DNA from: Candidatus Parcubacteria bacterium
GTDB taxonomy: Bacteria > Patescibacteriota > Saccharimonadia > UBA4664 > JBIOIQ01
Direction of reading: 5' to 3'
NCBI GenBank assembly: GCA_963718875.1
Contig: OY970378.1
Coordinates: 68,396 to 132,395 of the forward strand
Length of the DNA stretch: 64,000 bases
Numbering within the stretch: position 1 is the first letter of the stretch; the number at the start of each line of letters is the position of its first letter. The position numbers and the translations under genes are program-made. The notes under the pieces are model-generated. The model saw nothing but the letters and a program-made list of their open reading frames with translations. It was not told the DNA's origin and did no database searches. Positions 43,808-62,000 of this stretch are shown here, one piece after another.

Positions 43808-46522
43808 TCACGGCGGTGGCGGTGGCGGTGGCGGTGGCGGTGGCGGTGGCGGTGGCGGTGGCGGTGGCGGTGGCGGTGGCGGTGGCGGTGGCGGTGGCGG
43901 TGGCGGTGGCGGTGGCGGTGGCGGTGGCGGTGGCGGTGGCGGTGGCGGTGGCGGTGGCGGTGGCGGTGGCGGTGGCGGTGGCGGTGGCGGTGGCGGGCCT
44001 GATACAGAAGGTGGGGGCGCCTTAAGAGTTTTTGATGCACGGTCAACATGGTTGTCAAGGAAGTCTTGTAGGCTCATTTCATTACCGTTGAGAGTAATTT
44101 TGTGTGCCCGGGTGTTAACAGTAGGGTCTGACTCAAGAGCTAGAAGTGCTTCTACGCCCTTGCTTGAAAAGTTGGTTCTAGAAGTGGAATCTTCCATGAC
44201 TTGAGCGATTTGACCCATAAGGGGGTCAATTCTGCCTTCACTTGCAGCAAGCTCAACAGCTTCGGCTTGGCGCTCTTTAGAAAAATTGGCAAGCGCTTGA
44301 CCATTGGCTCCTCGGAGTTGCTCGTAGCCGTCAGGACGGAAGCCAGATTTTGCAGCCCAAGAACCATTGGATCCTTCGTGAGCATTCGACCATAGTTGCG
44401 CGGCTTTTGTTGCGTTGATCCTTCCCCCAGTTTTTGCTTTCAGCTTATTTGGGTCAAATTTACCATTTGCGCCTTGAAGACCTGCAGAAGTATGTACCAC
44501 TGCTCCAGTTTCGTCTTTCCAGTCGCCGCCTTGCATAAGTTTGGCGTATTCTGAGCTCCCTCCATTGCGCATTAGTCTTTCAAGAGCTGCTTGATACATT
44601 TGATCGTCCATTTTGGTTCCATCTGGTAATTCTCCCTTGGCCAAGGCTAAACCTAAGGCCACGTTGTCCGGGGTAAGACGCTTAAGCGTCTCGTCGTGGT
44701 CTTTGCGTCTAGCGGCCTCGGCGGCACCGATACTGGCATTCCTTCTTCGTTGGCCTGTCGGCCCATAGCTAAAAGCATTGCCCGATCCGACCCGACCCAG
44801 AACTTTTTTTATGCGGCCAGAGTCTGGGTCGCCCATCATAAGAGCGGCTTTTTCTCGGCTGGATTCTTTGGCATTTTTCATCAAGCCATTACTTCTTAGG
44901 CCCTTGCTCATTTTGCTGGCTCTCCCCTGAATGGCGCCGCTGACTGCTCCCATAAGCGTTCCCGAGGCCTTAAGGGTTTTTAATACCAAGAAAAATAAAA
45001 TGATGGGACCTAAGGATGACATAACTTGTTGGATTGGATCGCTTGCATTCCCCACCAAAGCCGGAAAGTCACTAATGATTTTGCCAGCGTAAATAAGAAT
45101 TACGATCATAGGGAACATTAGTAGTAGCTTAATTAAATTGGTGGACCACATTTTGAATAACTTTTCGGTATTGGGTAGTACCCAGGCAGCAAGTGCAATC
45201 GGAGACATTAATACCAAGAGATAGAGAATTATTATTCTGGCTTCGAGAGTAACAAATACTGCCAGGATCGAAACTAATGCACTTGCTAGTAAAAGTAACA
45301 AGGGTATTACAAGCCCTACAGCAACAGCGGCTGTGCCGGCAACAGCACCAATAGCCACAGCTTCTAGCCCTCCAAAGAATTGAATGGTACCACTATTGCC
45401 GCTACTAACGTCGTTTAAGGTGCTAAGTGGGGCTAAGAGTCCGCCTATGCCTCGTCCTAAAACATTGGTAAAGTCGATGGCAAAGGCCATAAGTACAAAT
45501 GAAAATTGCACCAAAATAACTGATAGTACTAGTCGTGGTAAAACTTTTTTAATGGTGTAGGCGTCTAAACCTAGGGCGTTACTTCCCAAAATAGCAAAGA
45601 ATATTAAGACAAAAAACACGTTGGCAATGTTTCGAATAATTACCCAGGCTTGGTAAACTGTGGTTGCGTTGCCACTACTATCTTCTGATGCCAGCGGGGC
45701 TGATTGGAGATAATTCAAAATTCTTGTTTCCAAGAAATTGACGGACCCTGTGGCCATGGAAATTAGCGGGCAAAGAATCCAACCTAACCCGCCTTGAATG
45801 TTGCATTTATCTTTAATGGAACCTGAATTTGAGGAGGCAAGACTAACTGAAGCATCGGGCGGCGTATTGCTGATAAGGACGGTACGCGTATCATTTGATT
45901 CGCATGCGTAGGTATTAAAAAATCCCACAATGGTTCTTTGAGTTTTCCTAGGGGTGAAGCGGCCAGTTTCACTGTTAGGGGCGGTTTGGACGGTGCTATG
46001 GCAGTCGCCACTGTTTTTTTGGCCGTAGATATTGGGTTCTGCTGAATTGTTTTGAAAAATTTCGGCCCCAATTTCATCATGTTGTCCGGTTTTAGCCCCT
46101 TTTAGCTCAAAATCGTAATTTGTGAAGGCCGGAGTTAAGGTGTCACCACTGGTCCTATAAAAGTAGACAGATGCTCTGGCTACTTCGCCCATTTCGAGCG
46201 GACGCTCACCGTCATATATGCAGTCAGAGTTGGCGGGATTGGAATGAAAGGAAAATAGGGTGGCTTTTGAGCTAGGATTTGGACTGCCCTCAAACCGTCC
46301 AATCCAGTTTGAGCAGGTTTTGTCGCCATTCAAATAATATTGACGTCCACTATCACCCAGAATGTTATCGATATAGACATCGTTGCCAACCTTGATATGG
46401 GCAGCGTCCAGCCAGGTGGCGTCAGCTGCATAAGCTGGAGTGGTAGGTAGGAGGACGGCGATCATGGGGATCAACACCAATAACATAAACGCTAATGCGC
46501 TTTTTTGCCTCAACCGGTTCAT
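43808..46522 (-). CDS. VirB6/TrbL-family polytopic T4SS membrane protein with large N-terminal ectodomain and ~60-residue C-terminal polyproline tail
   Basis: 904 aa; signal peptide, ~220-aa extracellular domain, multi-TM core paralogous to 41491-43572, C-terminal KAPPPSVSG(P)n encoded by the microsatellite. Confidence 0.65.
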   Translation of the reverse strand: MNRLRQKSALAFMLLVLIPMIAVLLPTTPAYAADATWLDAAHIKVGNDVYIDNILGDSGRQYYLNGDKTCSNWIGRFEGSPNPSSKATLFSFHSNPANSDCIYDGERPLEMGEVARASVYFYRTSGDTLTPAFTNYDFELKGAKTGQHDEIGAEIFQNNSAEPNIYGQKNSGDCHSTVQTAPNSETGRFTPRKTQRTIVGFFNTYACESNDTRTVLISNTPPDASVSLASSNSGSIKDKCNIQGGLGWILCPLISMATGSVNFLETRILNYLQSAPLASEDSSGNATTVYQAWVIIRNIANVFFVLIFFAILGSNALGLDAYTIKKVLPRLVLSVILVQFSFVLMAFAIDFTNVLGRGIGGLLAPLSTLNDVSSGNSGTIQFFGGLEAVAIGAVAGTAAVAVGLVIPLLLLLASALVSILAVFVTLEARIIILYLLVLMSPIALAAWVLPNTEKLFKMWSTNLIKLLLMFPMIVILIYAGKIISDFPALVGNASDPIQQVMSSLGPIILFFLVLKTLKASGTLMGAVSGAIQGRASKMSKGLRSNGLMKNAKESSREKAALMMGDPDSGRIKKVLGRVGSGNAFSYGPTGQRRRNASIGAAEAARRKDHDETLKRLTPDNVALGLALAKGELPDGTKMDDQMYQAALERLMRNGGSSEYAKLMQGGDWKDETGAVVHTSAGLQGANGKFDPNKLKAKTGGRINATKAAQLWSNAHEGSNGSWAAKSGFRPDGYEQLRGANGQALANFSKERQAEAVELAASEGRIDPLMGQIAQVMEDSTSRTNFSSKGVEALLALESDPTVNTRAHKITLNGNEMSLQDFLDNHVDRASKTLKAPPPSVSGPPPPPPPPPPPPPPPPPPPPPPPPPPPPPPPPPPPPPPPPPPPPPPPPPPPPPPPPPPPPPP
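43816..43995. repeat. perfect (GGTGGC)n hexanucleotide microsatellite, ~30 units
   Basis: About 180 bp of uninterrupted GGTGGC repeats; on the minus strand the TrbL-like ORF frame reads CCA CCG = Pro-Pro. The other frames give the artefactual RW/AV/HR ORFs in the track. Confidence 0.95.
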
Positions 46523-47684: not shown

Positions 47685-47990
47685 ATGGCTGTTGAATTTT
47701 TAGCTCAAGCCCAACAGCTTTGTCGGACTGCGGCTGATTGTGGCCTTCCTAATGTGGCTTTTACCAGCAGTACTTTGGGTCAAATTATTAGCTTGTTATA
47801 TAAGGTGTTGGCGGCCTGCTCAATTTTATTTCTTATGTTTGGGGCCTTTAAATACGCTGCTTCAGGTGGCGACTCAGCGGGTATAAAAAACGCCAAAGAA
47901 ACAATTTTGTACGCAGTTTTTGGCCTGATTATTAGTCTTTTAGCCTTTGTTGCGGTAACATATCTATCGAACAGAGCGGGAGGATTATAG
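47685..47990 (+). CDS. VirB2/TrbC-like pilin paralog 3
   Basis: 101 aa; ...FGAFKYAASGGDSAGIKNAKETILYAVFGLIISLLAFVAV. Confidence 0.55.
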   Translation: MAVEFLAQAQQLCRTAADCGLPNVAFTSSTLGQIISLLYKVLAACSILFLMFGAFKYAASGGDSAGIKNAKETILYAVFGLIISLLAFVAVTYLSNRAGGL

Positions 47991-48394
47991 TGATTAAGCT
48001 AAAATCGGCATTTTTGACATTGCTTGTGGCTGTTGGCCTAGGCGGTGGATTAAGTGTGGTTCTTCCCTCGCTGGCTTTGGCAGCTGATACGCCTTCGCAA
48101 ATTATCACTACTCAAGCCTGTAAAACCAATCCATCTGCCCTTGGCTGCCGTGCAAACGATAAAGTCTTTGGTGCTGGCAGCATATTTAATAACGGCATAG
48201 CCGTATTGATAGGTTTAATAGCTTCAGTCTCGGTGGTGATGGTAGTAGTTGGTGGCTTGCGTTACGTGCTTTCTGGTGGCGATTCAGCTGGTATAAAAAG
48301 CGCTAAAGATACCATTTTGTATGCATTAATTGGGTTGGGTGTGGCGTTGGTGGCGTTTTTGATTGTTGGGTTTGTAATAGGAAGAATAGGATAA
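47990..48394 (+). CDS. VirB2/TrbC-like pilin paralog 4
   Basis: 134 aa, GTG start overlapping the previous stop by 1 nt; VVGGLRYVLSGGDSAGIKSAKDTILYALIGLGVALVAFLIVGFV. Confidence 0.55.
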   Translation: MIKLKSAFLTLLVAVGLGGGLSVVLPSLALAADTPSQIITTQACKTNPSALGCRANDKVFGAGSIFNNGIAVLIGLIASVSVVMVVVGGLRYVLSGGDSAGIKSAKDTILYALIGLGVALVAFLIVGFVIGRIG

Positions 48395-48395
48395 C

Positions 48396-48812
48396 ATGAG
48401 TATTATGAAACGAAGATTTCGAGATTATATTTATACCTCCGCCTTGCTGGCTCCAGCTGTTTTGCTTGGTGGGCGAGCCCTTGCAGTAGATCCCAACTCC
48501 CCTACAGCGCAGGCTTGCACTGGTATTGGCGGTACGCTTAATGCAGCTGGTAAATGTGTGGTCGCTACCTCTAGCGGCAAGGTTGGTGATCTGGGCACAG
48601 CTTTTAAAGCAGTGGCTAACACGCTCATTTTTGTTGTAGGGGCGATTTCGATCATCATGGTTATTATTGGGGGCTTGCGCTACGTGCTTTCAGGGGGTGA
48701 TTCAGCTGGGATAAAGAGCGCTAAAGATACGGTTTTATATGCCCTCATTGGTGTGGGCGTGGCAATTGTGGCTTATGCGCTAGTTAACTTTGTCATAACT
48801 GCAATCACATAA
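48396..48812 (+). CDS. VirB2/TrbC-like pilin paralog 5
   Basis: 138 aa; IIGGLRYVLSGGDSAGIKSAKDTVLYALIGVGVAIVAYALVNFV. Confidence 0.55.
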   Translation: MSIMKRRFRDYIYTSALLAPAVLLGGRALAVDPNSPTAQACTGIGGTLNAAGKCVVATSSGKVGDLGTAFKAVANTLIFVVGAISIIMVIIGGLRYVLSGGDSAGIKSAKDTVLYALIGVGVAIVAYALVNFVITAIT

Positions 48813-48924
48813 TCCAAATTAATTTTTATTATTCTTATGCTTAAATGTTGTTTTGGCCTAGTCAAGCGTTAGCAATTGTGATACAAAGAAACAGTAAACA
48901 AGCCTTTAAGGAGAACTTATTCAA

Positions 48925-49350
48925 ATGACACAAACAATAAAATCGTTGGGTGGTAGGGCAGCTGGTGCAGCCGTATTAATAGCTACATTTGGTACTGGAG
49001 CATATGCTGGAACGCCAGTAACATGTGACCCTACAACAAGTACCGATCCTATTCAAAGCGGCGTAAACTGCAGTCAGCCTGCAGGTAGGGCTGGAAATTC
49101 CCAACTTTTTGGTGGGACCGGATCTATTTTCCAAACTGTTGCTAATACACTTATTTTCATCGTAGGAGCTGTTTCAGTAGTAATGCTTATCATCGGTGGC
49201 TTGCGTTACGTATTGTCGAGTGGTGAAGCCTCAGCTGTTAAGGGTGCTAAAGACACCATTCTTTACGCCATTGTGGGTATTGTAGTGGCTATTCTGGCCT
49301 TTGCGGCCGTATCGTTTGTGACTGGTCGATTTGGCGAGCCTACTGCTTAA
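48925..49350 (+). CDS. VirB2/TrbC-like pilin paralog 6
   Basis: 141 aa; IIGGLRYVLSSGEASAVKGAKDTILYAIVGIVVAILAFAAVSFV. Confidence 0.55.
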   Translation: MTQTIKSLGGRAAGAAVLIATFGTGAYAGTPVTCDPTTSTDPIQSGVNCSQPAGRAGNSQLFGGTGSIFQTVANTLIFIVGAVSVVMLIIGGLRYVLSSGEASAVKGAKDTILYAIVGIVVAILAFAAVSFVTGRFGEPTA

Positions 49351-50944: not shown

Positions 50945-51020
50945 GCGCTCGTAGCTCAGTGGATAGAGCATCAGCTTGCGGTGCTGGGGGTCGGAGGTTC
51001 GAGTCCTCCCGGGCGCACCA
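50945..51020 (+). tRNA. tRNA-Arg (anticodon read as GCG)
   Basis: Hand-folded cloverleaf: acceptor GCGCUCG/CGGGCGC (one G-U), U8 A9, D-stem GCUC/GAGC, anticodon stem UCAGC/GCUGG with loop UUGCGGU (U33, G37), T-arm GGAGG-UUCGAGU-CCUCC, discriminator A, encoded CCA. Confidence 0.7.
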
Positions 51021-51232
51021 TCGAAAAACACCTGTGTAATTACACAAAATTTTAAAAAAGAGACTTAGCAAAGTCTCTTTTTTTGTATCTAGGGGCACTT
51101 GTCGGGGCAATCAAATGTCAGGCAATTAAGTGAGAAGTTGCTCTATCCCCTTTCGATCGCTCCGCTTGAAGTCTGTAACGTTGCATAGTGATCCAGCTTC
51201 TCGCAGTGTGGTTCAATGCCGATTCATTTTTG
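51015..51232. repeat. att-like ~215-bp repeat E, copy 1 (starts in the tRNA 3' end GCACCA)
   Basis: Contains the 14-bp perfect palindrome TGTGTAATTACACA (51033-51046), an intrinsic terminator (AAGAGACTT-AGCAA-AGTCTCTT + T7, ~51054-51085) and ~130 bp further conserved sequence. Copies at 58451-58668 and 60095-60317 are ~85-90% identical. Confidence 0.8.
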
Positions 51233-51290
51233 CGAGACGCTTTGTTCCGGAGCCTTTACAGATACAACTGGCTTGTGTTCAAATTGATAC

Positions 51291-52376
51291 ATGGAATTTA
51301 TACCAGGATTGCAGTTAAGCGAACTCTTTTACAAAGAGGCAGTTCTGCCGATTCTGGAGGCGAGCTTCCCCCACTTAGCCCATGGGGCTGGGCTTATAGG
51401 TGAGGGGTCGGAGGTGCTCGGGTTTGATGACGAACGTTCAATGGATCACGATTGGGGTCCCAGATGTCAGATTTTTCTGAGCCCTGATGATCACAAGAAG
51501 TTGGCTAGCCAAATCACAGAAGTACTTGGTAAGGAGCTCCCCCGTGATTTTCGCGGGTTTCCTACCCGTTTTAGCGTTTATGAAGATACGGGCGCAAAGC
51601 TTCTGGATCGTAGTGAAAGCGGGCCGGTGACGCACAGAGTTGAAATCGAAAGCATCCCGGAGTTTTTTGGCGGGTATCTGGCATTGGATGTTGATAAAGC
51701 AATGTCTGTCTACGACTGGTTGACCACACCAGAGGAACTCCTGCTTATTGTCACTTCCGGCAAAGTTTTTTCCGACCCTCTCGGCGGACTCCAGCAGATC
51801 CGACAAAAATACTCGTACTATCCGGAGGAGGTGTGGCTGTATTTGCTCGCCTCACAGTGGCGCATAATCAGCCAAGAGGAAGCATTTATTGGTCGCACTG
51901 CGGCGGCAGGGGACGATTTGGGCTCTCGAATATTGACGGCCAAGATGGCTGGCTATTTGATGAAGCTGGCATTTCTAATGGAGAAGAAGTATGCCCCATA
52001 CAGCAAGTGGTTCGGTAAGGCATTTAGTCAGCTTGAAGCTGCAAAGCTGCTGGCTAGCCCTTTGAAATCGGCCCTTGATGCATCTGAATATTCTGAGCGT
52101 GAAGGCTACTTGTCAGAAGCTTATGAAATTGTCGCAGGTATGCATAACCAGCTTGGCATCACAGACGCCATTGACCCAACAGTTCGCTCGCATTACTACG
52201 ATCGACCCTATAAGGTCATCAAGGCCGATAGATTTGTCGATGCCATTGCGAACAAGCTTAAAGGCACTGAGCTAGCCGAGATAGCGGGCATAGGTTCCGT
52301 TGATCAGTTTGTTGCCAACGTTGACCTATTGACCCATCCTGAGCTTTGCCACAGGCTATCTGCTCTATATCTTTAA
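51291..52376 (+). CDS. nucleotidyltransferase-fold protein with DUF4037-like C-terminal region (island cargo)
   Basis: 361 aa; N-terminal GLIGEGSEVLGFDDERSMDHDWGPR resembles the GS...D.D motif of polymerase-beta-type nucleotidyltransferases. Sits between repeat E and repeat F, which are directly fused in the third copy. Confidence 0.4.
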   Translation: MEFIPGLQLSELFYKEAVLPILEASFPHLAHGAGLIGEGSEVLGFDDERSMDHDWGPRCQIFLSPDDHKKLASQITEVLGKELPRDFRGFPTRFSVYEDTGAKLLDRSESGPVTHRVEIESIPEFFGGYLALDVDKAMSVYDWLTTPEELLLIVTSGKVFSDPLGGLQQIRQKYSYYPEEVWLYLLASQWRIISQEEAFIGRTAAAGDDLGSRILTAKMAGYLMKLAFLMEKKYAPYSKWFGKAFSQLEAAKLLASPLKSALDASEYSEREGYLSEAYEIVAGMHNQLGITDAIDPTVRSHYYDRPYKVIKADRFVDAIANKLKGTELAEIAGIGSVDQFVANVDLLTHPELCHRLSALYL

Positions 52377-52380
52377 TCGT

Positions 52381-52605
52381 TTTTGCTCTTGCAGATCTTT
52401 GCTTTCGGCGCGACAATCGCGGTAATTAACGAGAAGTAGTCATGAAGCAGCCCAAACCCCGTTCGCAGCGCCGCGTCAGAGTAACTGGAGTTAAGAAGAA
52501 AGAGCCGAATGTAAAGCTTTTCACATTGGCTCTGATCGAACTAGCAAGGGAGCAGGTGCAAGCTGAGGACAAGAAGACAGGCGACAAATAACGTCTACGT
52601 TACGC
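52381..52605. repeat. ~220-bp repeat F, copy 1 (carries the small basic ORF and ends in the CGCTCATGCTTG box)
   Basis: Second copy at 60318-60545 is ~85% identical and includes a GGCGCGACAATCGCGG inverted-repeat motif. Confidence 0.75.
52442..52591 (+). CDS. small basic protein, 49 aa (duplicated; paralog at 60376-60531)
   Basis: Below the ORF-track size cut-off; my translation is MKQPKPRSQRRVRVTGVKKKEPNVKLFTLALIELAREQVQAEDKKTGDK. The paralog MKQPKPRPQRRVRVAGIKKKEPNVKLFTLALIELAREQMRTEDEKKDKSIT differs mostly by conservative changes, which suggests a real gene. Confidence 0.5.
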   Translation: MKQPKPRSQRRVRVTGVKKKEPNVKLFTLALIELAREQVQAEDKKTGDK

Positions 52606-52693
52606 TCATGCTTGTCTTAAAATCACTGTGCCCTGAGCAGTAAGTGATTCGGTCGACTGGTTTCGAACCACATTCTTTATCTGTCCTTTGGCG

Positions 52694-53341
52694 TTAGGCG
52701 AAGAGACTGTATATGACCGGCTTCTCGGCTCTATGATAAGACACGAATAATCTATCGGAACACAGATTGCCCCAGGACAATACCGACGCCAGGATTTCGG
52801 CTGGCGTCCAACGGTAGGTTACGAACGATGTATCACTTACGGCCGTTGATACGCTCGTTTCCATATGGGAGGTTTGCGGATCAAAGCCCGGGATGAGGGG
52901 CTCATAGGTGAAAATGAGGCTTCCTTTGGAGTTTAGGTGTTTCCCGACCTGCAGTAGCACCTGGGGGAGATCAGGGATAAACTCCAGACTTCCAATGGCC
53001 ACCACAAGGTCAAACAGGCGCGCATCCCTCGCGAGGAACTGCACAAGGTCTTCGGCATGAGTCTCGGCTGAGGGGAACTTCGCCGCAGCTATGTCGATCA
53101 TTGCTGGGGAAATATCCACAGCCACCAAAGTCTGGAGATCTGGATATAGCTCGCATATCTGGCTAAGAGTCTGTCCGGTGCCGCAGCCCAAGTCGAGCGC
53201 CGTCGAAGCTCTGACCGCGCTGGCTAAGAGTTCCTCGCCCAGGACACTGTTTGGTATCCACGCACCATCACCCGTTGCTGCGTCATATAGCGGGGCTAAC
53301 CCATTCCAGTATTTTGCTGTACTCTTATTCAGGTCCACCAT
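52694..53341 (-). CDS. class I SAM-dependent methyltransferase
   Basis: ALDLGCGTGQTLSQI motif I and DLVVAIGSLEFIPD; high-GC gene. Confidence 0.7.
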   Translation of the reverse strand: MVDLNKSTAKYWNGLAPLYDAATGDGAWIPNSVLGEELLASAVRASTALDLGCGTGQTLSQICELYPDLQTLVAVDISPAMIDIAAAKFPSAETHAEDLVQFLARDARLFDLVVAIGSLEFIPDLPQVLLQVGKHLNSKGSLIFTYEPLIPGFDPQTSHMETSVSTAVSDTSFVTYRWTPAEILASVLSWGNLCSDRLFVSYHRAEKPVIYSLFA

Positions 53342-53607
53342 TTAATCCGATTATATACTACGAATAAGGTGGCACTAATTTCGCAAAAGAACAAGTTGCA
53401 GCAGTCGAATCGAGCAAGAGAAATGACGCTAACCAAGCCTACTTTCTCTTTCCCTTATGCTTGGTCAATTGAGCTCAATGTCATATAATGTTGTTTCGGG
53501 TTGACCGGATTGGTTCTTATCCGAATCTGATTTACTTCTGCTTAGCGCTCTGATGAGCCCAGTGCGCTGAGCTTGGGAAGTACCTGAGCCGGCATGGAGG
53601 CAATCCC

Positions 53608-54006
53608 GTGACAATCGGTATCTTCGAAGACGTCCTGCCGGCAGGATGGTCGTCCGATGTTGGCAATCCACCACAGCTCGGCGACGTCATCATGAGCATG
53701 CAGAGCAACCGGTCATTTCCAATCCCCATGCTTCTCGAGGTCACCGATCCATCGGGCATGCTGCCGCCGGAAGAGAGCGTCTACCTTCCGGTGCGTGCGA
53801 CCTCGATCCGCACGGTCTACCCGCAGGGCTGGGACGAGCCCGAGTACGAGGTCGTGGGGTACGTGACTCGCACCAGATCGGAGCGGGAGATCACCTGGGT
53901 TCGGATCGATCTTCGTACGAACGGCGATACCACCATCAAGGAAGCGACGGCGTATCTCCTTGGCCCAGGGGAAGAGATCGGGCTCGATCAGACCATCAGG
54001 AACTGA
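53608..54006 (+). CDS. hypothetical protein (island)
   Basis: 132 aa; preceded by promoter box TATGCTTGGTCA-N17-TATAAT (53455-53492) and followed by hairpin element A (54060-54110). The overlapping Arg-rich 53646-54110 frame is rejected. Confidence 0.45.
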   Translation: MTIGIFEDVLPAGWSSDVGNPPQLGDVIMSMQSNRSFPIPMLLEVTDPSGMLPPEESVYLPVRATSIRTVYPQGWDEPEYEVVGYVTRTRSEREITWVRIDLRTNGDTTIKEATAYLLGPGEEIGLDQTIRN

Positions 54007-54059
54007 GCAAGATTCGGGAGGGCCCCGAGCGGCCGACATCGCCGCGCATCATTGCAAAG

Positions 54060-54110
54060 GCAGGGAACTGGGGTTCGCGCCCCAGTTCCCTGCCCCACTT
54101 TTATGACTAG
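54060..54110 (+). repeat. hairpin element A, copy 1 (GGAACTGGGG-TTCGCG-CCCCAGTTCC + CTGCCCCACTTTTATGACTA)
   Basis: 10-bp GC-rich perfect stem; copies at ~56350-56397 and ~61808-61856, each directly after an ORF stop. Confidence 0.75.
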
Positions 54111-54232
54111 ATACATTGTTAAATAGTCGTTTATGCTTGGCATTAATTCATTTTGGTATTAATATATTCCTACGTTTCAATACGGACCAAACAGCCAACC
54201 TTGGCTAACGTGTTGAACGGTGAGGAGAGTGC

Positions 54233-54568
54233 ATGACAACTGGCGTTTTGACGGATGACGACATCAACGGCAGGCGCAGGATGATTCGTCTCGAACTGCT
54301 CAGTCGCGGCCAAGTCGGCGTGGTTGGTGCGGGGGGCATGGTTCCGATGCAGGAGCTGACTCCCTACGAGCTGCACGAGCACATCGGCAACGTCGGATGG
54401 GAACTCGAAGGCTTGACTCGGACCGACTGGATCAACCTCAGCGCGGCCGAACAGGAGGCCTTCCTGCACAGCATGGACAACCTGGAGAGGTTGCTCGACG
54501 CCGATCCCGAGGCGAGCGTCCCCACGGCACTCGAACTCGGTATCGATCCCAACTTCCTTCTGAACTAG
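54233..54568 (+). CDS. hypothetical protein (island)
   Basis: 111 aa, ~60% GC; upstream TTGGCA-N17-TAATAT box at ~54137-54165; followed by hairpin element B at 54603-54661. Confidence 0.45.
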   Translation: MTTGVLTDDDINGRRRMIRLELLSRGQVGVVGAGGMVPMQELTPYELHEHIGNVGWELEGLTRTDWINLSAAEQEAFLHSMDNLERLLDADPEASVPTALELGIDPNFLLN

Positions 54569-54602
54569 CCCCATCGGCGACGACGCCGAGCTCACCCCCC
54601 GT

Positions 54603-54661
54603 CCTTATTCGCCTCTCAGACAAGGCTCCTCGCCAACTCTGGGAGGCGCCTTGCGTTTAGG
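54603..54661 (+). repeat. hairpin element B, copy 1 (CGCCTCYCAG-N~20-CTGGGAGGCG + CCTTGCGTTT)
   Basis: Copies at 55565-55626, 59299-59355, 59978-60030 (diverged) and 61120-61180, always 10-35 nt after an ORF stop and before the CTCATGCTTGCC promoter box. Confidence 0.8.
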
Positions 54662-54735
54662 CAACCTGTTAAACCCCGCCTGAACCTTTGCGCTCATGCT
54701 TGCCTAATTGAGTTCATATCAGTATTAGTATCTTA

Positions 54736-54823
54736 TGCTCCGCCGCAGCAAACTGAGCACTTCGATTAGCACTCAGCTTGCTGCGAAACCGGAAAGTCCG
54801 GATAAGCGGAGGAGGCTCGTGAT
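54736..54823 (+). ncRNA. conserved structured 5' leader (candidate cis-regulatory RNA), copy 1
   Basis: CTCCGCCGCAGCAAACTGAGCAC-loop-GCACTCAGCTTGCTGCG long helix, CCGGAAAGTCCGG hairpin, then GCGGAGGAGG (SD) whose GCGGAG can pair with the 5' CTCCGC. Second copy at 61237-61319 upstream of an unrelated ORF. Confidence 0.4.
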
Positions 54824-55144
54824 ATGACCGACCAGGCATCAGCTTATCATGTCCCAGTTCTGAGCCACTATGCAATTTGGTACGGACCAAACATCGACGT
54901 TTTGAGCGCTGCCGTTCCATCCCGTGACCCTCGAGGCACGATCAAGCCGGGGGCCGACTACTTCCGGTTCTACGACGTTCTGGAACTTGAAGCGGAAGTC
55001 GATGGGGAGATGGTTCGCTTTTACAGCGGCCCCGCAACTACTCGTCGTTCTATTTTCCTGGGGGTGGCTTCCTTACTGGCGACGATCGTGACAACGCCCT
55101 ACGTCGCCGAGGAATTTCGTTCGAGCTCGACAAGTATCTGGTGA
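54824..55144 (+). CDS. hypothetical protein (island)
   Basis: 106 aa behind the conserved leader. Confidence 0.4.
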   Translation: MTDQASAYHVPVLSHYAIWYGPNIDVLSAAVPSRDPRGTIKPGADYFRFYDVLELEAEVDGEMVRFYSGPATTRRSIFLGVASLLATIVTTPYVAEEFRSSSTSIW

Positions 55145-55192
55145 TCTGGACTCGCTACCGCGTCGTACTCCTGACGGCGGAAGAGCTGGCGG

Positions 55193-55549
55193 GTGCAGAT
55201 GTTGAGTTCCCTCCCCTGGCATCATCCGATGTTGTCTGAGGATCTAGCCACTCTGGCCGCAATTTGGCGAGACTGGCACACTGTGCACTTCGCTCTCGGA
55301 ACCAACAGTGAGCCGGCCGAAATCAAGGTTGTTCAAGAAGCTCACGAGTTCCGCGACCATCCTTCTCTGGCAGAAGCTGCCGACGTGATTATTCCTCTGC
55401 TGACCTGGCTCGATACCAAAGGTCACGCTGTGGAGGATCTGATTGGAGCGGTGGCGGCAAAGATCCATGAGAACATGCGGCGAACCTGGGTGCGTCAACC
55501 TGACGGGACTTTCCAGCATGTCGAAGATTCTGATGAACCAGCCGGCTAA
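55193..55549 (+). CDS. MazG-like all-alpha nucleotide pyrophosphohydrolase (putative)
   Basis: 118 aa; ...VQEAHEFRDH...SLAEAADVIIPLLTWLDTKGHAVEDLIGAVAAKIHENMRR matches the E..E / EEADV-I-LL...G.D...A...K...N..R pattern of MazG/HisE-type NTP-PPases. Confidence 0.4.
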   Translation: MQMLSSLPWHHPMLSEDLATLAAIWRDWHTVHFALGTNSEPAEIKVVQEAHEFRDHPSLAEAADVIIPLLTWLDTKGHAVEDLIGAVAAKIHENMRRTWVRQPDGTFQHVEDSDEPAG

Positions 55550-55665
55550 TGGCCGCAACGATCCGTTCTATTCGCCTCCCAGGCCAAGGCTCCTCGCCAT
55601 TCTGGGAGGCGCCTTGCGTTTTGGGGATTTGTTTCTTGCTCATGCTTGCCTAAAGATTCAAAACG

Positions 55666-55694
55666 TTGACATATTTCAACTTTTAGCATATAAT
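55666..55694 (+). promoter_or_regulatory. consensus sigma70-type promoter (TTGACA-17-TATAAT) inside a conserved CTCATGCTTGCCTAA box
   Basis: TTGACA 55666-55671, 17-nt spacer, TATAAT 55689-55694. Equivalent boxes sit at ~53455, 54137, 54683, 60547 and 61197, each after a hairpin element. Confidence 0.55.
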
Positions 55695-55798
55695 ATGACA
55701 CGGCATTTTTGAAAGGGCTTCGGAGTCTCGCCAGCAGTCTGCTGCTTTTTGCAGGAGCCGCCTGCTGTCCGGGACTCTCACGAAAGGCCTGATTCATA

Positions 55799-56281
55799 AT
55801 GCTGACCTTTGAAGAACTGTTTGCCGAAGTCGTTGTACGCTTCGACGCCGCTCCTGACACCCGCATTGAAGCTGACGGAGTGCTCTATGCAAACGACTAT
55901 GTCCACTTCGCTTGGCTTTTGACTGAAGAGCGCATTACCACGCGGGAGGAAGCGCTTGAACTCATTCAAGACATGGTGCGGAACTATGAAGTTCCGAACG
56001 CATCTCCTAGAGACGGCTTGGAGTTCACCGACTGGGTAGGACTGGCGGTTCAGCTCTTTGTCACCCTGGTCGAAGGGAGGGTTGAAAGTGACCCTGTTTT
56101 GGAACGAGCTGAGCGCAGGCGAAGCGTGTTGGTCTCTGTAGCAACCGAAACTGGTTTGGCCGCTAAGGCCAACCTCGAAGAGAGTGGTTTTACGACCACT
56201 GTGGACTGGGGCAATTTGCTCCTTCTGAGAATCGGAGCAAAGGATCTCGTTCCGGTGCGAGCGCCTGAAGACGAGTCCTGA
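55799..56281 (+). CDS. hypothetical protein (island)
   Basis: 160 aa, followed by hairpin element A copy 2. Confidence 0.45.
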   Translation: MLTFEELFAEVVVRFDAAPDTRIEADGVLYANDYVHFAWLLTEERITTREEALELIQDMVRNYEVPNASPRDGLEFTDWVGLAVQLFVTLVEGRVESDPVLERAERRRSVLVSVATETGLAAKANLEESGFTTTVDWGNLLLLRIGAKDLVPVRAPEDES

Positions 56282-56404
56282 TCCAATAACACTCCATTTC
56301 AACGTTTCCCAGGCTGTTTCGGAGTGAGGCTAGGAGTCCTTGTTCACCGCAGGAGTTGGGGTTCGCGCCCCAGCTCCTGCCCCACTTTATGACTACACAG
56401 CTCG

Positions 56405-56640
56405 CCGCCTGGCGGAACTTCCAGGTTCTTAACGGCAAGAATCAGCTGATTTCTGGATGTTCGGCCAATGTTCGTCAGAGCCTGCCACGGTATAACGACA
56501 AAGAGGGTCTCTTTTTGTAGTTTGTGTAAGCGGGTGTAATCGATGTTGTGCCGGGTCTTAAGCTTCCAGAGTGGAATGATACAGAATACTGATCGCGTCA
56601 TGGATTCCTGGGTTTGAAAGCTGTCCGATTAGGGGCACCA
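56405..56640. repeat. ~230-bp direct repeat D+, copy 1 (ends in the GCACCA core)
   Basis: Near-identical copy at 58224-58452, with partial copies at ~56690-56715 and 60063-60100. Contains the GGAACTTCC palindrome and a terminator-like AAAGAGGGTCTCTTTTT. Confidence 0.75.
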
Positions 56641-56833
56641 ACGTAAGAATTATTCTCAAAACGTGGCTTATCAAAGCCACGTTTTTTGTGGTTTGAATGC
56701 TGTCCGATTAGGTGCCTAATCGAAATGATGACTTGGATGTCCTTGCAGGTATGGTCGAGTAAGTGCGTGATTGCTCAAAGCACAGCTGCCGAGAGCAAGC
56801 TCGACGTAGGCGTTTGCCAAGATAGGCAGTAAA

Positions 56834-57316
56834 ATGGGAACCATGGAGAAATGGTCCCTACCCCCACGGATCAAGATATACGAGGCGCTCGGAGCCATCG
56901 CGGACGGGCGACTGACACTAACGACGCCGGGCGCTGCCACTGTCTTATCCTCTTCTGGCAACAAGACGTACAACGTTACCTACAATGCCGAGACAGGTGA
57001 AGTTACCTCGAATGATAATGGCTCGTATTGGCAAGGATACCTGGGATACCCCGCGATTGCCTATTTCATGGCTAAGGGCATTTTGCAGTACGAGTCAACA
57101 GTCGCGGCGTGGCTCAAAGGAATTGCCTGGAAGGATGTCAACACTAAGTTCGAGAACGACTATGTCCAGACCGAGGCTTTAGTGCGCAGCTATGTCATTG
57201 AAGCAGGAGGCGACCTGGTGGTTCTTGATAGTCAGATCAACAAGACAACACACCAGCTGACGCTCCTTCCTCTCAGGAAGGGCGCTTCCTTGAACAAGCC
57301 CCCTGGGGATTACTAG
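56834..57316 (+). CDS. hypothetical protein (island)
   Basis: 160 aa, lower GC than neighbours, no recognisable motif. Confidence 0.4.
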   Translation: MGTMEKWSLPPRIKIYEALGAIADGRLTLTTPGAATVLSSSGNKTYNVTYNAETGEVTSNDNGSYWQGYLGYPAIAYFMAKGILQYESTVAAWLKGIAWKDVNTKFENDYVQTEALVRSYVIEAGGDLVVLDSQINKTTHQLTLLPLRKGASLNKPPGDY

Positions 57317-57430
57317 GCGAGATATTCTCCAATGCGCCCATTACTCCCCGTGCAACTAACCCCTTGTCCGGCGCTATTTCATATCACATGATCTTGTGAT
57401 ATAACGGCAACAACAACCTTACCAGCGTCC

Positions 57431-57757
57431 GTGAGAACTGACTGGAGGAGACAAAAGCTAAGACGAGGAAATCGATCCATGAAGCGCATCCAGTACGAAC
57501 AACGTTCCAGGCCGATCGCCGCTCTCTGGGCATTCTTGGCCCTAGTACTCAGCCTGCCGATAGTGGGAGGTGCGTGGTTCTTCCTGTCGGCATGGATGGC
57601 GTATAAGTGGGGTGGTGGTTTCTTTAGCCAAAGCCAGCCAATAGCCAGCTGGTATTCCTACGCTTCGTACGGGAGCATTCTGATCGCTCTTGCCATCGAA
57701 GGCGCGATCGTGATATGGGCATATCGTATGGTTCGAAAGCGTACATTGAAGCCTTAA
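57431..57757 (+). CDS. small membrane protein (island)
   Basis: Two to three predicted TM helices (IAALWAFLALVLSLPIVGGAWFFLSAWMAY; GSILIALAIEGAIVIWAY); the true start may be the internal MKRIQYEQ. Confidence 0.4.
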   Translation: MRTDWRRQKLRRGNRSMKRIQYEQRSRPIAALWAFLALVLSLPIVGGAWFFLSAWMAYKWGGGFFSQSQPIASWYSYASYGSILIALAIEGAIVIWAYRMVRKRTLKP

Positions 57758-57859
57758 CCGGCCCCCTCTCTCCCGGTACGTCGGCGACGCTTGCTTTACC
57801 GACTGACTTGTATGTCAAACAAAATGGTGAAACAATTATGACAGTTATTAGGCTATGTC

Positions 57860-58153
57860 ATGAAGAGTTCTTCGCAATCCCCTTATCGTTATTTAATTGC
57901 TGTTGGGATAAGTTTTGCTGCTGTTGTAGAAAGCTGGTGGGTAGTTTCAAAGCTAATCCCTGCTCTCTCAAGCCAGACAGGTATCATGGGGGCGGCACAC
58001 CCTCGTCCTCGGTTTCCTATTTACCTGGCTTGGCTAGTGATGATTGCTGTACTTGGAAGTGCAGCACTTAGCTGGATTAAGTCGAAGTATGCAATCGGGC
58101 TTTTTGCAATCTGTAGTCTCGCGACGTTTATTCTAGCCTTAGCTGCTATTTAG
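57860..58153 (+). CDS. small membrane protein (island)
   Basis: 97 aa, three hydrophobic helices. Confidence 0.4.
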   Translation: MKSSSQSPYRYLIAVGISFAAVVESWWVVSKLIPALSSQTGIMGAAHPRPRFPIYLAWLVMIAVLGSAALSWIKSKYAIGLFAICSLATFILALAAI

Positions 58154-58450
58154 GATCGCTTGTCTGATCCCGTTCCGAACCACACAGAGAAGCAAGAGAA
58201 GTTGCAAACTCAGGGTTCGAACGCCGCCTGGCGGAAGTTCCAGGACCATAGCCGCAACAATCAATCAATTTCTGGACGTTCGGCCAATGTTCGTTCAAGC
58301 CCGCCACGGTATAACGACAAAGAGGGTTTCTTTTTGTAGTTTGTGTAAGCGGGTGTAATCGATGTTGTGCCGGTCTAGGCTTCCTGCGTGGAATGATACA
58401 GAATACTGATCGCGTCATGGATTCCTGGGTTTGAAAGCTGTCCGATTAGG

Positions 58451-58668
58451 GGCACCATCAAATTTCATGTGTGTAATTACACAAAAGTATGGAAAAGAGA
58501 CTTAGCAAAGTCTCTTTTTTGTATTTAGGGGGTAGCCGTCGCATGTATCAATTGCAAGCAACTTAGTAAGAAATCGCTCTACCCCCTCTCGCTCGCTCCG
58601 CTTGAAGTCTGTAATTTTGCATAGTGATCCAACTTCTTGCAATGTGGTTCAATGCCGATTCATTTTTG
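58451..58668. repeat. att-like repeat E, copy 2
   Basis: GCACCATCAAATTTCATGTGTGTAATTACACAAAAG...terminator...GGTTCAATGCCGATTCATTTTT; preceded by D+ copy 2. Confidence 0.8.
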
Positions 58669-58720
58669 AGGGCTTAGGCTTTTGCCACTACGAGTAAGCT
58701 AGAACCCCGTATCCAGCTAT

Positions 58721-59272
58721 TTGTTTCGGGAAGGACATCTGGCTGTGTGTTGGGAGAGAGCAATCAGTGTCTATTTTGGAAGTGAGGGCGGCGGGTGTAC
58801 AATTAATACAATGCATGGATCCACGAGACGTATATCCTCACTGACACTGCTAATAGGTGTGCTGGGAGTTCTTTACGTATCTTGGACTTTGAGCTCTAGT
58901 TTTACCGGCGAACAGAAGGCCGACCCCCAGCTACAAATTCTTCGCCACGATCCAATGGCATCTTGGGATCCCTCTGTTGTAACTGGGACTGAGCAGAGAA
59001 CCGAGCGAGCCTCAAGTGACGGGTTAATAACCGGTACGAACGCCAAGCTCCTGCGCGTTATTCCTCTATCGACTGAGGTTGGTGTACTTGACGAAGCATC
59101 ACGAGCCGCAGCGTCCGCGGGATGGGTATTGCAGGATCGAGCGCAGGCCGATACTATTATTGGTTCCCGAAACATAGAAGCACACGTGGTAACTATTAGT
59201 CTGAGCCTGTTACGACCGCCTGACTCAGGTATCAATGGACCAACTCTTTTGATCAGCCTGACAGGGACCTGA
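58721..59272 (+). CDS. secreted/membrane-anchored hypothetical protein (island)
   Basis: Probable start at the internal MHGSTRRISSLTLLIGVLGVLYVSW (signal anchor); followed by hairpin element B copy 3. Confidence 0.4.
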   Translation: MFREGHLAVCWERAISVYFGSEGGGCTINTMHGSTRRISSLTLLIGVLGVLYVSWTLSSSFTGEQKADPQLQILRHDPMASWDPSVVTGTEQRTERASSDGLITGTNAKLLRVIPLSTEVGVLDEASRAAASAGWVLQDRAQADTIIGSRNIEAHVVTISLSLLRPPDSGINGPTLLISLTGT

Positions 59273-59504
59273 CAGGCTGATCGTCTGTCAGGCAGATGCC
59301 GACGCCTCCCAGGCCAAGGCTTCTCGCCAATCCTGGGAGGCGCCTTGCGTTAAGATCACCCCTTAATAGCAAATGTTGAGCTTCCTATATAGAGTTCAAG
59401 AAAGGCCGTTGGCAAGTAGCTTTTTCTTTGTTTTTATTTTCTCACGTCTCAATATGTACCTATCGCTATTCCGGCGAACTTATTGGGCGGAAGAGGAGCA
59501 CTGA

Positions 59505-59936
59505 ATGACCAACCCGTTCCAGCAGTTGTCTGACGACGAGGTTGCAGCCAGGATAGCTACCTGTCGTCATCTGTTGACCCGGCTCGGCGTAGTCCGCGTG
59601 CACATCGGCCGTGCTTTGCCGATGAGCGAGCTGACCGTTGTCGAGCTCGATGACCGCACCGCCCACATGCAGGCCCTACTCGACACCAAGGGCCAGCCGG
59701 AATCAGTCCGTGACGCAGCAGTGGAAGCCGCTGCCCTGCGCCGCGAGTTCGAGGTCATGGAGTATCTGCTCCAGCACCCCCACGCATCGCTGTTGTCTAC
59801 CGATACCCTCGGGCCTCCGCCCGTTTCGGAGGGTCCCGGCGTGGTGTTGCCAGTCGGAGGTCCTTCGTCCGCAGTGGTGACTCTGTTGCGAGCCAGAAGG
59901 GCTGTTCCCGTCCCTGCCATGGCCATGGCGGCCTAG
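59505..59936 (+). CDS. hypothetical protein (island)
   Basis: 143 aa, high GC, followed by the diverged hairpin element B copy 4. Confidence 0.4.
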   Translation: MTNPFQQLSDDEVAARIATCRHLLTRLGVVRVHIGRALPMSELTVVELDDRTAHMQALLDTKGQPESVRDAAVEAAALRREFEVMEYLLQHPHASLLSTDTLGPPPVSEGPGVVLPVGGPSSAVVTLLRARRAVPVPAMAMAA

Positions 59937-60094
59937 CTGCAACCGATCATCTCCACCTAACCAAGCGACTTCAAGTCGCGACCGCCTCTCACGCAAGGCT
60001 CCTCCTTGCCTGACGGCGTCTTGCTTTAGTCACGAATCACCAAATCACACAAAACAGCCAGAGAAGCCGTGAATTCTGGGTTTGAAAGCTGTCC

Positions 60095-60317
60095 GATCAG
60101 GAGCACCATCAAATTTCATGTGTGTAATTACACAAAAGTATAGAAAAGAGACTTTGCAAAGTCTCTTTTTTGTATTTAGGGCCACTTGTCGGAGGCATCA
60201 AATGTCAAGCAATTAAGTAAGAAGCTGCTTTACCCCTCTGGTTCACTCCGTTTGAAATCTGTAATGTTGCCCAGTGATCCAGCCTCTCGCACTGTGGTTC
60301 AATGCCGAATCATTTTT
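60095..60317. repeat. att-like repeat E, copy 3 (directly fused to repeat F copy 2, 60318-60545)
   Basis: Same palindrome, terminator and core sequence. Here E runs straight into F, whereas copy 1 has 1.15 kb of cargo between them. Confidence 0.8.
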
Positions 60318-60375
60318 TGCTCTTGTAGATATACCGCATCGGCGCGACAATCGCGGTAAATAATGAGATATAGCA

Positions 60376-60531
60376 ATGAAGCAACCCAAACCCCGTCCGC
60401 AGCGCCGCGTCAGAGTAGCTGGAATTAAGAAGAAAGAGCCGAATGTTAAACTTTTCACCTTGGCTCTGATAGAGCTTGCCAGAGAACAGATGAGGACTGA
60501 GGACGAAAAGAAAGACAAGAGTATAACTTAA
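60376..60531 (+). CDS. small basic protein, 51 aa (paralog of 52442-52591)
   Basis: MKQPKPRPQRRVRVAGIKKKEPNVKLFTLALIELAREQMRTEDEKKDKSIT; not in the ORF track. Confidence 0.5.
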   Translation: MKQPKPRPQRRVRVAGIKKKEPNVKLFTLALIELAREQMRTEDEKKDKSIT

Positions 60532-60625
60532 GCGTCCCGCTCATGCTTGCCTAAATAGTTCTTACTTCAGTATAATTAGGCTATTCTTCCGCTTCCGGGC
60601 TTGGCGCTTTGTCTGTCTTATCAGA

Positions 60626-60889
60626 TTGGTAGTGCGCCCGGTCTGGAAATGCCATGACTTGAAGGCTGGAGAAACGATGCCTGATACACAAAATGAAATG
60701 GGCGACCGTCTGCTCAACGGATGTCTTGCCGCCTGGGTCATATTCGGACTTCTCGTCGGCTGGACAGGAGCTTATGAAGGCGGCTGGGAGTTCCTAGCTT
60801 CCGTAAGTGGCTTCTTGGTCACAATTGGTCTAGGAGAGTGGGTGTACGTGTTATTCCCAACATCCCTGCGCACCGCCACGAAGGAGTAA
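60626..60889 (+). CDS. small membrane protein (island)
   Basis: 87 aa, two TM helices; upstream TTGCCT-N18-TATAAT box. Confidence 0.4.
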   Translation: MVVRPVWKCHDLKAGETMPDTQNEMGDRLLNGCLAAWVIFGLLVGWTGAYEGGWEFLASVSGFLVTIGLGEWVYVLFPTSLRTATKE

Positions 60890-60894
60890 TCTCA

Positions 60895-61098
60895 ATGGAA
60901 TCTTTCCTTGTCATCGCAGCGTGGACCCTCGGTGGAGTAATCCTCGGCTGGTTCGCCCCTTACCTATCACTTGAAATCATGAACGTATCTCCGGACACGT
61001 GCGAATACCGTTCGAGCATCACGTTCATGCGATTCTTCACCACGCCTGCCATGGCGGCGTTTTTCCTCCTGACCTATCTCGAGCTCATCCGAGTCTGA
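60895..61098 (+). CDS. small membrane protein (island)
   Basis: ORF 60838-61098; likely start at MESFLVIAAW (ATG 60895); two TM helices; followed by hairpin element B copy 5. Confidence 0.4.
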   Translation: MESFLVIAAWTLGGVILGWFAPYLSLEIMNVSPDTCEYRSSITFMRFFTTPAMAAFFLLTYLELIRV

Positions 61099-61236
61099 GG
61101 GATAGCTAGTCCGCCAAGTTCTATTCGCCTCCCAGGCCAAGGCTCCTCGCCAACTCTGGGAGGTGCCTTGCGTTTTAGGGCCTCAAAGACGCTCGTGCTT
61201 GCCTTTTTAGGCTCATTTCAGTATAAGTACCCTATT

Positions 61237-61319
61237 CCTCCGCCGCAGCAATCTGAGCACTTCTTCCTTAGCACTCAGTTTGCTGCGAAACCGGAAGTAC
61301 CGGATGCGGAGGAGGACGC
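61237..61319 (+). ncRNA. conserved structured 5' leader, copy 2
   Basis: CTCCGCCGCAGCAATCTGAGCAC...GCACTCAGTTTGCTGCG...CCGGAAGTACCGG...GCGGAGGAGG; ~85% identical to 54736-54823. Confidence 0.4.
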
Positions 61320-61781
61320 GTGACAACAGACGGTGCAACCCAAACCATCGAAGAGCTGATGGCGCGCCTTTCGTGGCATACGAATTACGACGTTGAGGTT
61401 TCTGTTCTAAGCGGGATGGGGTTTTCAGCTAAGATCACCGACCCATCCTTCGGTTTGCCCGTCGTGTATGGATTCGGGATCGGCAAAACGGTTGTTGAGG
61501 CGCTCCAAAACGCCGAAAGACATGCGGAAAATCTACGAATGGCTGGGTATGTACCCACCGCTGAGCGGAACCAGCCATGCCTCAGGTGCAACAATGACGG
61601 TTTCTTGCCCGAATCGAGCCATGCAACTGGCGCTACGTGCAGATGCTCTTACGGCCGCAGGGCGCGCTTAGCGGAGCGAGCGTTTCAGGATCGGGGGCAA
61701 CAGACGGACGGTGTCACTCGAGCTTCCTCGAGAAGATCAATGGCTCCGCGAGGAAGATGTCGACGTACTGGTCCGGCTTGA
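61320..61781 (+). CDS. hypothetical protein (island), Cys-rich C-terminus
   Basis: 153 aa, GTG start; followed by hairpin element A copy 3. Confidence 0.4.
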   Translation: MTTDGATQTIEELMARLSWHTNYDVEVSVLSGMGFSAKITDPSFGLPVVYGFGIGKTVVEALQNAERHAENLRMAGYVPTAERNQPCLRCNNDGFLPESSHATGATCRCSYGRRARLAERAFQDRGQQTDGVTRASSRRSMAPRGRCRRTGPA

Positions 61782-62000
61782 TACCCAATCACATGTCCTT
61801 GACCACCGCAGGAACTGGGGTTCACGCCTCAGTTCCTGCCCCACTTTATGACTACAGGACTTCACAGATGGCTCTGTCATCTGTGAGTGTTTATTGAAGC
61901 CTCCCCGTGGACGATGGCGCACGAAAGTCGTCCAATCAGGTGTGTTATAGCTAATCCATTACTTATTGCAAAATGTAATGGTATTTGATAAAGTAATGGT

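Follow-up and report, generated by a model that had tools for sequence, protein, structure and literature searches.

Two copies of a leader with a predicted three-way-junction fold precede unrelated genes in tandem integrase-less elements beside a tRNA-Arg gene

Two copies of a 5' leader predicted to fold into a three-way junction were found on the + strand of a 64,000-nt stretch of contig OY970378.1 from a Candidatus Parcubacteria bacterium (positions 68,396 to 132,395, hereafter the window), leader A at 54736–54823 and leader B at 61237–61319. The leader most probably acts as the structured 5' UTR of a portable promoter–leader module. The more specific proposal, that it is a cis-acting structured 5' UTR within the conserved backbone of small elements beside tRNA-Arg, is put forward tentatively and stands somewhat short of an even chance. 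It is a modest, as yet unproven motif of a known kind, previously undescribed. If the fold is real, it would represent an undescribed portable leader that sets the expression of any cargo placed behind it in small tRNA-linked elements, part of a natural standardized expression cassette made up of promoter, structured leader, strong RBS and closing hairpin, and it would serve as a useful marker in the search for such elements among poorly known bacteria. Fewer than three copies are known, too few for the leader to be called a family as yet, and it opens no long-standing question.

The ~85% identity of the two leaders given in the preliminary description was reproduced by alignment, and BLAST found a core of 59 nt common to both at 90% identity (E 1.5e-12). 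Self-comparison of the island matched 54606–54822 to 61122–61323 (77% over 223 nt, E 1e-38), so that the repeat begins ~130 nt 5' of the leaders, where it had first been taken to start. The full repeat spans ~220 nt and runs, in this order, through an 11-bp hairpin, a box GCTCATGCTTGCCT, a -10-like hexamer and the leader up to the start codon. The leader arm sequence has no other occurrence in the window. Homology between the two copies ends a few bases from the start codons and the proteins beyond are unrelated (BLASTP E 31), in line with the original claim; the 106-aa protein on which half of that claim was based, however, is encoded by an ORF of a frameshifted copy of a 138-aa gene. The repeat and its palindromic architecture are real.

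Next to tRNA-Arg (50945–51020), the sole Rfam match in the window at the gathering threshold, four related integrase-less elements are arrayed in tandem (51012–61900, + strand). Leaders A and B belong to separate elements of this array and are on this ground conserved backbone ahead of variable cargo. The elements are E1 (51012–56640, 5.6 kb), which contains leader A, E2 (~56640–58457, 1.8 kb), E3 (58449–60108, 1.65 kb) and E4 (60100 to ~61900, 1.8 kb), which contains leader B. Their left ends (51012–51232, 58449–58668 and 60100–60317) share 83–86% identity, the right ends at 56403–56640 and 58222–58457 share 91%, and a stretch of backbone at 52380–52620 matches 60314–60555, giving 80–91% identity overall for left ends, right ends and backbone. 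Each element opens with a divergent repeat of the 3' end of the tRNA (GGTTTGAAAGCTGTCCGATTAGGGGCACCA at 56611, 56690, 58428 and 60079). Together with the adjacent tRNA-Arg and a rise in GC content from ~45% across most of the window to 51–55% in the island, these tRNA-3'-end-like repeats agree with the island setting proposed earlier. No integrase domain was found in any island ORF tested and no phage genes were found in the island. All genes neighboring the leaders are on the + strand. What had been described as two unrelated island genes is variable cargo behind one conserved backbone module in two sister elements.

In module A, the promoter-like stretch (54693–54728, + strand) comprises the box CTCATGCTTGCCT (54693–54705), which includes TTGCCT as -35, a 17-nt spacer and the hexamer TATTAG (54723–54728). 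In module B (61192–61227, + strand), CTCGTGCTTGCCT (61192–61204) is followed after a spacer of the same length by TATAAG (61222–61227). Transcription would then start near 54735 in module A and near 61234 in module B. Five copies of the box GCTCATGCTTGCCT were present in the island at 0–1 mismatch and, allowing up to two mismatches, 10 matches were found against 1.4 expected. The module A stretch is further homologous to a promoter at 60547–60576, TTGCCT-18-TATAAT, which is called by the promoter scan. The same scan made no call at TATTAG or TATAAG, both of which end in G and lack the conserved final T; for this reason both transcription starts are only inferred, and the onset of P1, 3 nt past the start, is counted from imperfect, uncalled -10-like hexamers.

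The repeat opens with a hairpin of repeat family D6, at 54610–54648 in module A (+ strand; an 11-bp stem with the conserved loop CAAGGCTCCTCGCCA, followed by CCTTGCGTTT), where it sits at the 3' end of the preceding cassette, and at 61126–61165 in module B (+ strand). Two other copies in the window (55573–55611 and 59303–59341) bring the number there to four, and one more was found on the metagenome contig L002 described below (823–860). In the consensus fold, the copies show G.U-tolerant one-sided changes on the + strand, with one pair occurring as GU, GC and AU. A canonical intrinsic terminator was rejected for this hairpin, as the T-run begins 8 nt past the stem and the terminator scan made no call. 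The hairpins were also considered as integron attC sites and rejected, since RYYYAAC/GTTRRRY core sites are absent in the copies and no integrase domain occurs in the island. The loop bases CAAGG are complementary to CCTTG directly after the stem, an H-type pseudoknot being sterically possible, and these bases are identical in all copies (54610–54660, 55573–55623, 59303–59353 and 61126–61177 in the window; 823–872 in L002).

Structure prediction, a check suggested in the preliminary description, returned the same three-way junction of helices P1, P2 and P3 for both leaders, with the minimum free energy (MFE) structure equal to the centroid. In P1, CUCCGC of leader A (54738–54743) is predicted to pair with GCGGAG (54806–54811) and CCUCCGC of leader B (61237–61243) with GCGGAGG (61306–61312), the 3' strand being in each case the 5' half of the SD sequence GCGGAGGAGG (54806–54815 in leader A, with the ATG at 54824; 61306–61315 in leader B, with a GTG at 61320). 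P2 abuts P1 on the 5' strand with zero gap in both leaders and joins 54744–54760 to 54769–54785 around the loop 54761–54768 in leader A, and 61244–61260 to 61271–61287 around the loop 61261–61270 in leader B. Read on the + strand, it has helical segments of 8, 5 and 2 bp, the first two separated by a 1x1 mismatch and the last two by a 2x2 CA/CA internal loop. P3, a CCGG hairpin, joins 54789–54793 to 54797–54801 in leader A and 61291–61294 to 61300–61303 in leader B. The 17-bp imperfect helix and the short hairpin previously reported for each leader could thus both be found in the sequence. MFE values were -40.7 kcal/mol for leader A and -40.0 kcal/mol for leader B (z -4.35 and -4.07, respectively), and 0 of 200 shuffles were equally stable.

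The SD-sequestering role first ascribed to the 5' CTCCGC holds only in part: its pairing with GCGGAG is predicted, but only 2–3 bases of the AGGAGG core fall inside P1, leaving GAGG (A) or AGG (B) unpaired in the predicted fold. Complementarity between 5' end and SD exceeded that of random 16-mers from the island (p 0.03 for A and 0.003 for B), values that count as one event because A and B are homologous. In this duplex test, 5'-end/SD pairing in the other island leaders was at background, with only A and B above it, which ruled out such pairing as the design of all island leaders, as folds had suggested. SD accessibility was no lower in island leaders than in host genes, a crude control that is uninformative.

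Closer examination of the differences between the two leaders showed that 0 of 50 paired and 8 of 22 aligned unpaired nucleotides had changed (Fisher p = 2.7e-5), in addition to four indel columns, with all substitutions and indels falling in loops, mismatches or linkers. Specifically, the P2 loop, of 8 nt in A, 10 nt in B and 8 nt in L002, differs in sequence as well as in length over unchanged stems. The 1x1 position of P2 is A.C in A and U.U in B, still a mismatch though both sides have changed, which is consistent with a + strand RNA whose internal loop has been maintained. Across the 2.6 available copies (A, B and the partial L002), none of the 25 pairs varies, and hence none covaries, in a comparison that, with fewer than three copies, all of them close relatives, has no power. 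The preliminary description had named loss of helix conservation, or a lack of compensatory changes among homologues, as evidence against the structure; the stems proved invariant and compensatory changes numbered zero in these 2.6 copies. The copies are ~80–90% identical overall, with 86–90% in the leader against 78–83% in the adjacent coding DNA, and the conservation of paired bases may in part come from recent duplication or exchange. The confinement of variation to unpaired bases argues against neutral decay of a passenger sequence and against a riboswitch; taken alone, it does not distinguish a helix in RNA from an inverted repeat in DNA.

The search for further leader copies gave one addition, L002, a partial copy on a 1083-bp metagenome contig that was reached via homologues of the cargo protein. 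The copy begins inside the P2 loop and its positions 8–63 are 98% identical to leader B, and it stands ahead of an A-type cargo homologue, P0003 (65% protein identity). This pairing of a B-type leader with A-type cargo indicates that leader and cargo are exchangeable modules. Distant cargo homologues (P0005 and P0006; eleven loci, L005–L015) have other, unrelated leaders. A covariance model of A, B and L002, which scores leader A at 98.6 bits and leader B at 99.9 bits, detected nothing in the L005–L015 loci and no further clear copy. Searched as an exact pattern, the leader sequence CTCAGNTTGCTGCGAAACCGG gave 0 matches in the genome collection, 0 in the viral collection and one in the metagenome collection, the latter inside a coding sequence and attributed to chance. 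The 5' half of the leader gave 0 matches in viral contigs, and the linked hairpin and promoter box gave 0 in the viral collection and two in the genome collection, both in coding sequence of unrelated organisms and again ascribed to chance. No match to the module turned up when phage and plasmid records were searched with BLAST, nor did a viral protein-pattern scan for the cargo return any. Chance matches aside, neither the 185,579 species genomes nor the metagenome and viral collections contained the element. The Rfam scan proposed at the outset assigned the leaders to no family: none reached the gathering threshold in Rfam 15, local matches up to E = 10 were only miRNA-type noise of 12–20 bits, and a scan of the island up to E = 1 gave nothing at the leaders.

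A stretch at 53534–53601 was considered as a third family member, with a model score of 14.2 bits and apparently three compensatory P2 pairs. It was rejected as covariation because, in a plain alignment, its 5' arm lines up with the 3' arm of the A and B leaders. The stretch serves as leader to a 132-aa gene and follows a promoter of the same family; its TTAGCGCTC and GGAAGTACC recur in leaders B and L002, and the stretch may be a rearranged relative.

The best-supported account, on the basis of the model, is fixed tuning in cis, by which the mRNA would be stabilized and initiation damped. The backbone module would consist of the hairpin, the promoter-like box with its -10 hexamer and the leader, with variable cargo joined exactly at the start codon. 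Transcription would begin ~3 nt ahead of P1, and the RNA would fold immediately into the three-way junction, P3 filling the junction and P1, stacked straight on the long hairpin P2, tying the first mRNA nucleotides to GCGGAG(G), the upstream half of the RBS. With its 5' end buried in a helix, the mRNA could be shielded from 5'-end-dependent decay, and with 2–3 bases of the AGGAGG core held in P1, initiation may be damped to a fixed level set by the breathing of P1. The leader would then sense nothing and serve as a fixed expression-tuning leader. Stem-loops that stabilize mRNA from its 5' terminus are known from the E. coli ompA 5' UTR, the B. subtilis aprE leader and the SP82 and ermC leaders. 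Like these, the present leader places a stable helix a few nt from the putative 5' end, followed by a strong RBS, and would be cis-acting and portable between genes; unlike them, its basal helix also takes up half of the SD, and it shares no sequence similarity with them.

The main rival to fixed tuning in cis, although unlikely, is a factor-dependent translational gate, in which the RBS would stay shut until a trans-acting factor opens or cuts the leader. The most plausible such factor is RNase III, cutting the ~24-bp coaxial P1–P2 stack, with an RNA-binding protein or helicase encoded by the island or by a helper as the alternative. SD-occluding leaders opened by RNase III are known from the lambda N leader, and T7 early mRNAs have sites such as R1.1. 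The likeness extends to the mobile element, the similar copies before different genes, the helix of about two turns with internal loops and the SD at its base; in contrast to those systems, SD occlusion here is partial and known from a predicted fold, and the leader has no similarity to those sites. P1 runs directly into P2 on the 5' strand, for about two helical turns in all, with the 1x1 and 2x2 internal loops at conserved positions, and in anatomy only, P1 (6–7 bp) and P2 together provide the stack of at least ~20 bp with internal loops that is typical of an RNase III site. The fold is too stable in silico for spontaneous opening, and conserved helices with variable loop sequences would suit a recognizer of double-stranded RNA shape. 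However, the SD core is partly free in the fold, so that a gate is not strictly needed, and there is no alternative conformer with an open SD, GCGGAG having one complement only in the leader. Less probable than a gate is a functionless passenger, that is, a palindrome copied along with the promoter at a recent duplication or exchange. The few copies (2.6), all close relatives, the higher identity of leader than of coding DNA noted above, the zero covariation and the absence of the element from the collections searched are all compatible with it. Neutral decay would nevertheless affect stems and loops alike, whereas the differences are concentrated at unpaired positions, with three substitutions and a 2-nt indel in loops beside stems with none.

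A role in DNA is improbable to a greater degree. The 17-bp inverted repeat 3' of the promoter would in that case be an operator bound by a dimeric island regulator, which would block or roadblock both cassettes. Both modules carry this long conserved inverted repeat at ~+10 to +50 from the putative start, conserved arms around a variable spacer are an operator pattern too, and a small basic ORF of 49/51 aa is conserved in the E1 and E4 backbone. Nevertheless, RNA is favored over a DNA repeat because the arms are 8 bp apart in A and L002 but 10 bp apart in B, a displacement of the half-sites by 2 bp and a rotation of ~70 degrees that would be hard for a rigid dimer to accommodate, and because P1 and P3, outside the palindrome, are equally invariant; in addition, the arms are imperfect at the same positions and the other island promoters lack further half-sites. 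It is less probable still that the - strand is the functional one, as antisense RNA or single-stranded DNA. P2 is an almost perfect 18-bp hairpin there and folding is stronger, with -47.5 kcal/mol (A) and -44.6 kcal/mol (B) for the whole fold (z -6.4 and -5.4) and -30.1 and -25.7 kcal/mol for P2 alone, against -20.5 and -20.8 kcal/mol for P2 on the + strand. The better fold arises because + strand A.C and C.A mismatches, which include all three of those in A, turn into G.U pairs; three transitions of one type are expected by chance in ~1 in 8 cases. The + strand is favored as the functional form because the nearby genes are all on it and no - strand promoter-like site or T-run brackets the leader, because the conserved block stops at the start codon, with no room for a conserved antisense promoter, and because the 1x1 position is unpaired on the - strand too, passing there from U.G in A to A.A in B with loss of pairing. 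Moreover, single transitions from a perfect palindrome yield internal loops only as A.C. Cis-antisense control of the FinP/traJ or CopA type was likewise rejected, there being no - strand promoter-like site or T-run near either copy.

Nothing supports the riboswitch or RNA thermometer first suggested for this leader, and sensing of a ligand or of temperature is the least probable of the explanations considered, even though the SD lies in a helix that closes a multi-helix junction. Against a riboswitch, it is the unpaired junction and loop bases, which would have to form any ligand pocket, that vary and the helices that are fixed, opposite to the pattern of an aptamer; no Rfam family matches, the cargo genes are orphans unrelated to one another that share no metabolic theme, and neither half of P1 has an alternative partner, so that, with the MFE and centroid structures the same, there is no expression platform. 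The leader resembles ROSE and fourU thermometers in pairing the SD to an upstream pyrimidine stretch within the 5' UTR; those, however, are weak U-rich or mismatched helices that melt at 30–42 °C, whereas P1 is GC-rich, with five G-C among its six pairs, and stacked on a 15-bp helix. In silico, P1 is >90% paired at 65 °C and predicted to be stable, still largely paired, at 75 °C, and the probability of being unpaired for the SD bases in P1 is <=0.06 at 55 °C and <=0.16 at 65 °C. An attenuator or intrinsic terminator was rejected, P2 being followed by AAACCGG and P3 by ATAAGCGG or ATGCGG, with no T-run and no scan call. An upstream ORF or leader peptide was rejected as well: copy A has an ATG at 54735, where B has ATT, and a TGA at 54827, and the reading frame is lost between the copies through indels of 1, 2 and 2 nt. 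The ORF in copy A, of 30 codons, spans the whole leader, with its ATG at the putative start and its TGA overlapping the main ATG (ATATGA). Finally, it is very doubtful, though a shade less so than a - strand function, that the leader belongs to an island-wide circuit, in which the Arg/Lys-rich backbone protein of 49–51 aa or a helper factor would bind the nascent P2/P3 hairpins, like an N/nut- or put-type site, after which the RBS would be opened or RNA polymerase would read through the inter-cassette hairpins. Were this true, all cargo genes of the tandem elements would be switched on together, a kind of control new for such elements.

The cargo gene of module A (54824–55239, + strand) belongs to a 138-aa orphan family and is frameshifted, the 106-aa ORF covering 54824–55144. 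The frameshift lies at a C-run (55030–55033) with CCCC where the homologues P0002 (138 aa) and P0003 (137 aa), which align past the frameshift, imply CCCCC. A 1383-bp Logan contig of ERR12037361 carries the 138-aa gene intact, with the same spacer of 255 nt between it and a 111-aa gene, and with flanking proteins identical to those of the window. The module A frameshift is either specific to the strain, as a pseudogene or phase variant, or an error in sequencing the homopolymer. The 106-aa query retrieved three proteins and a profile of the 138-aa family five; structure prediction for this family (mean pLDDT 50) was too poor for a fold search and sequence searches of the PDB were empty. The start of the second gene of operon A (55229–55549, + strand) overlaps the stop of the 138-aa gene, an order also seen in L002, and its product is weakly similar to MazG-type dATP/dGTP pyrophosphohydrolase (PF04447, E 0.0017, below the curated cut-off). 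The cargo gene of module B (61320–61781, + strand) encodes a 153-aa orphan with a Cys-rich center, the sole match of which among 5.8 billion proteins was itself, with no match in Pfam, PHROGs, PADLOC or PDB. Moron-type cassettes of prophages carry their own promoter, one or two genes and their own terminator. The cassettes described here resemble morons in being short, with a promoter-like box upstream, a hairpin or terminator downstream and unrelated orphan cargo; unlike morons, they are set in tandem elements at a tRNA gene in which no phage genes or integrase were found.

In addition to the leader modules, the backbone of E1 and E4 contains the Arg/Lys-rich small ORF of 49/51 aa (52442–52591 and 60376–60531), which is conserved with many synonymous differences, has a palindrome GGCGCGACAATCGCG 5' of it and a promoter-like box immediately 3', and has no match in Pfam. 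A 72-aa counterpart occupies the same place in related metagenome islands (L006, 5618–5836). The leader at 60579–60676 and a leader of the distant island L006 (5903–6003; the same in L007–L011) have a common outer stem, GGCTTGG...CCCGGTCTG. The L006 leader precedes a different gene, and its inner hairpin differs in sequence with pairing kept. The leader type at 60579–60676 may represent another structured leader that is portable and shows some covariation.

The tRNA-Arg next to the array has the anticodon GCG instead of the usual bacterial ACG. The flanking chromosome encodes dnaA (25074–26462), mnmE, a VirB4-type ATPase, three T4SS-pilin paralogues, Hsp20, a ComFC-like gene and a VapBC pair, with the pilin paralogues (PF18895) in tandem at 47990–49350, 3' of the VirB4-type ATPase cluster and near dnaA. 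The host of the island appears to be without a close relative in databases, and the MnmE of the flanking chromosome is a singleton at 90% identity in the protein collection. A perfect (GGCGGT)n tract of ~190 nt (43812–43997) is located at the 3' end of a 904-aa ORF on the - strand (43808–46522).
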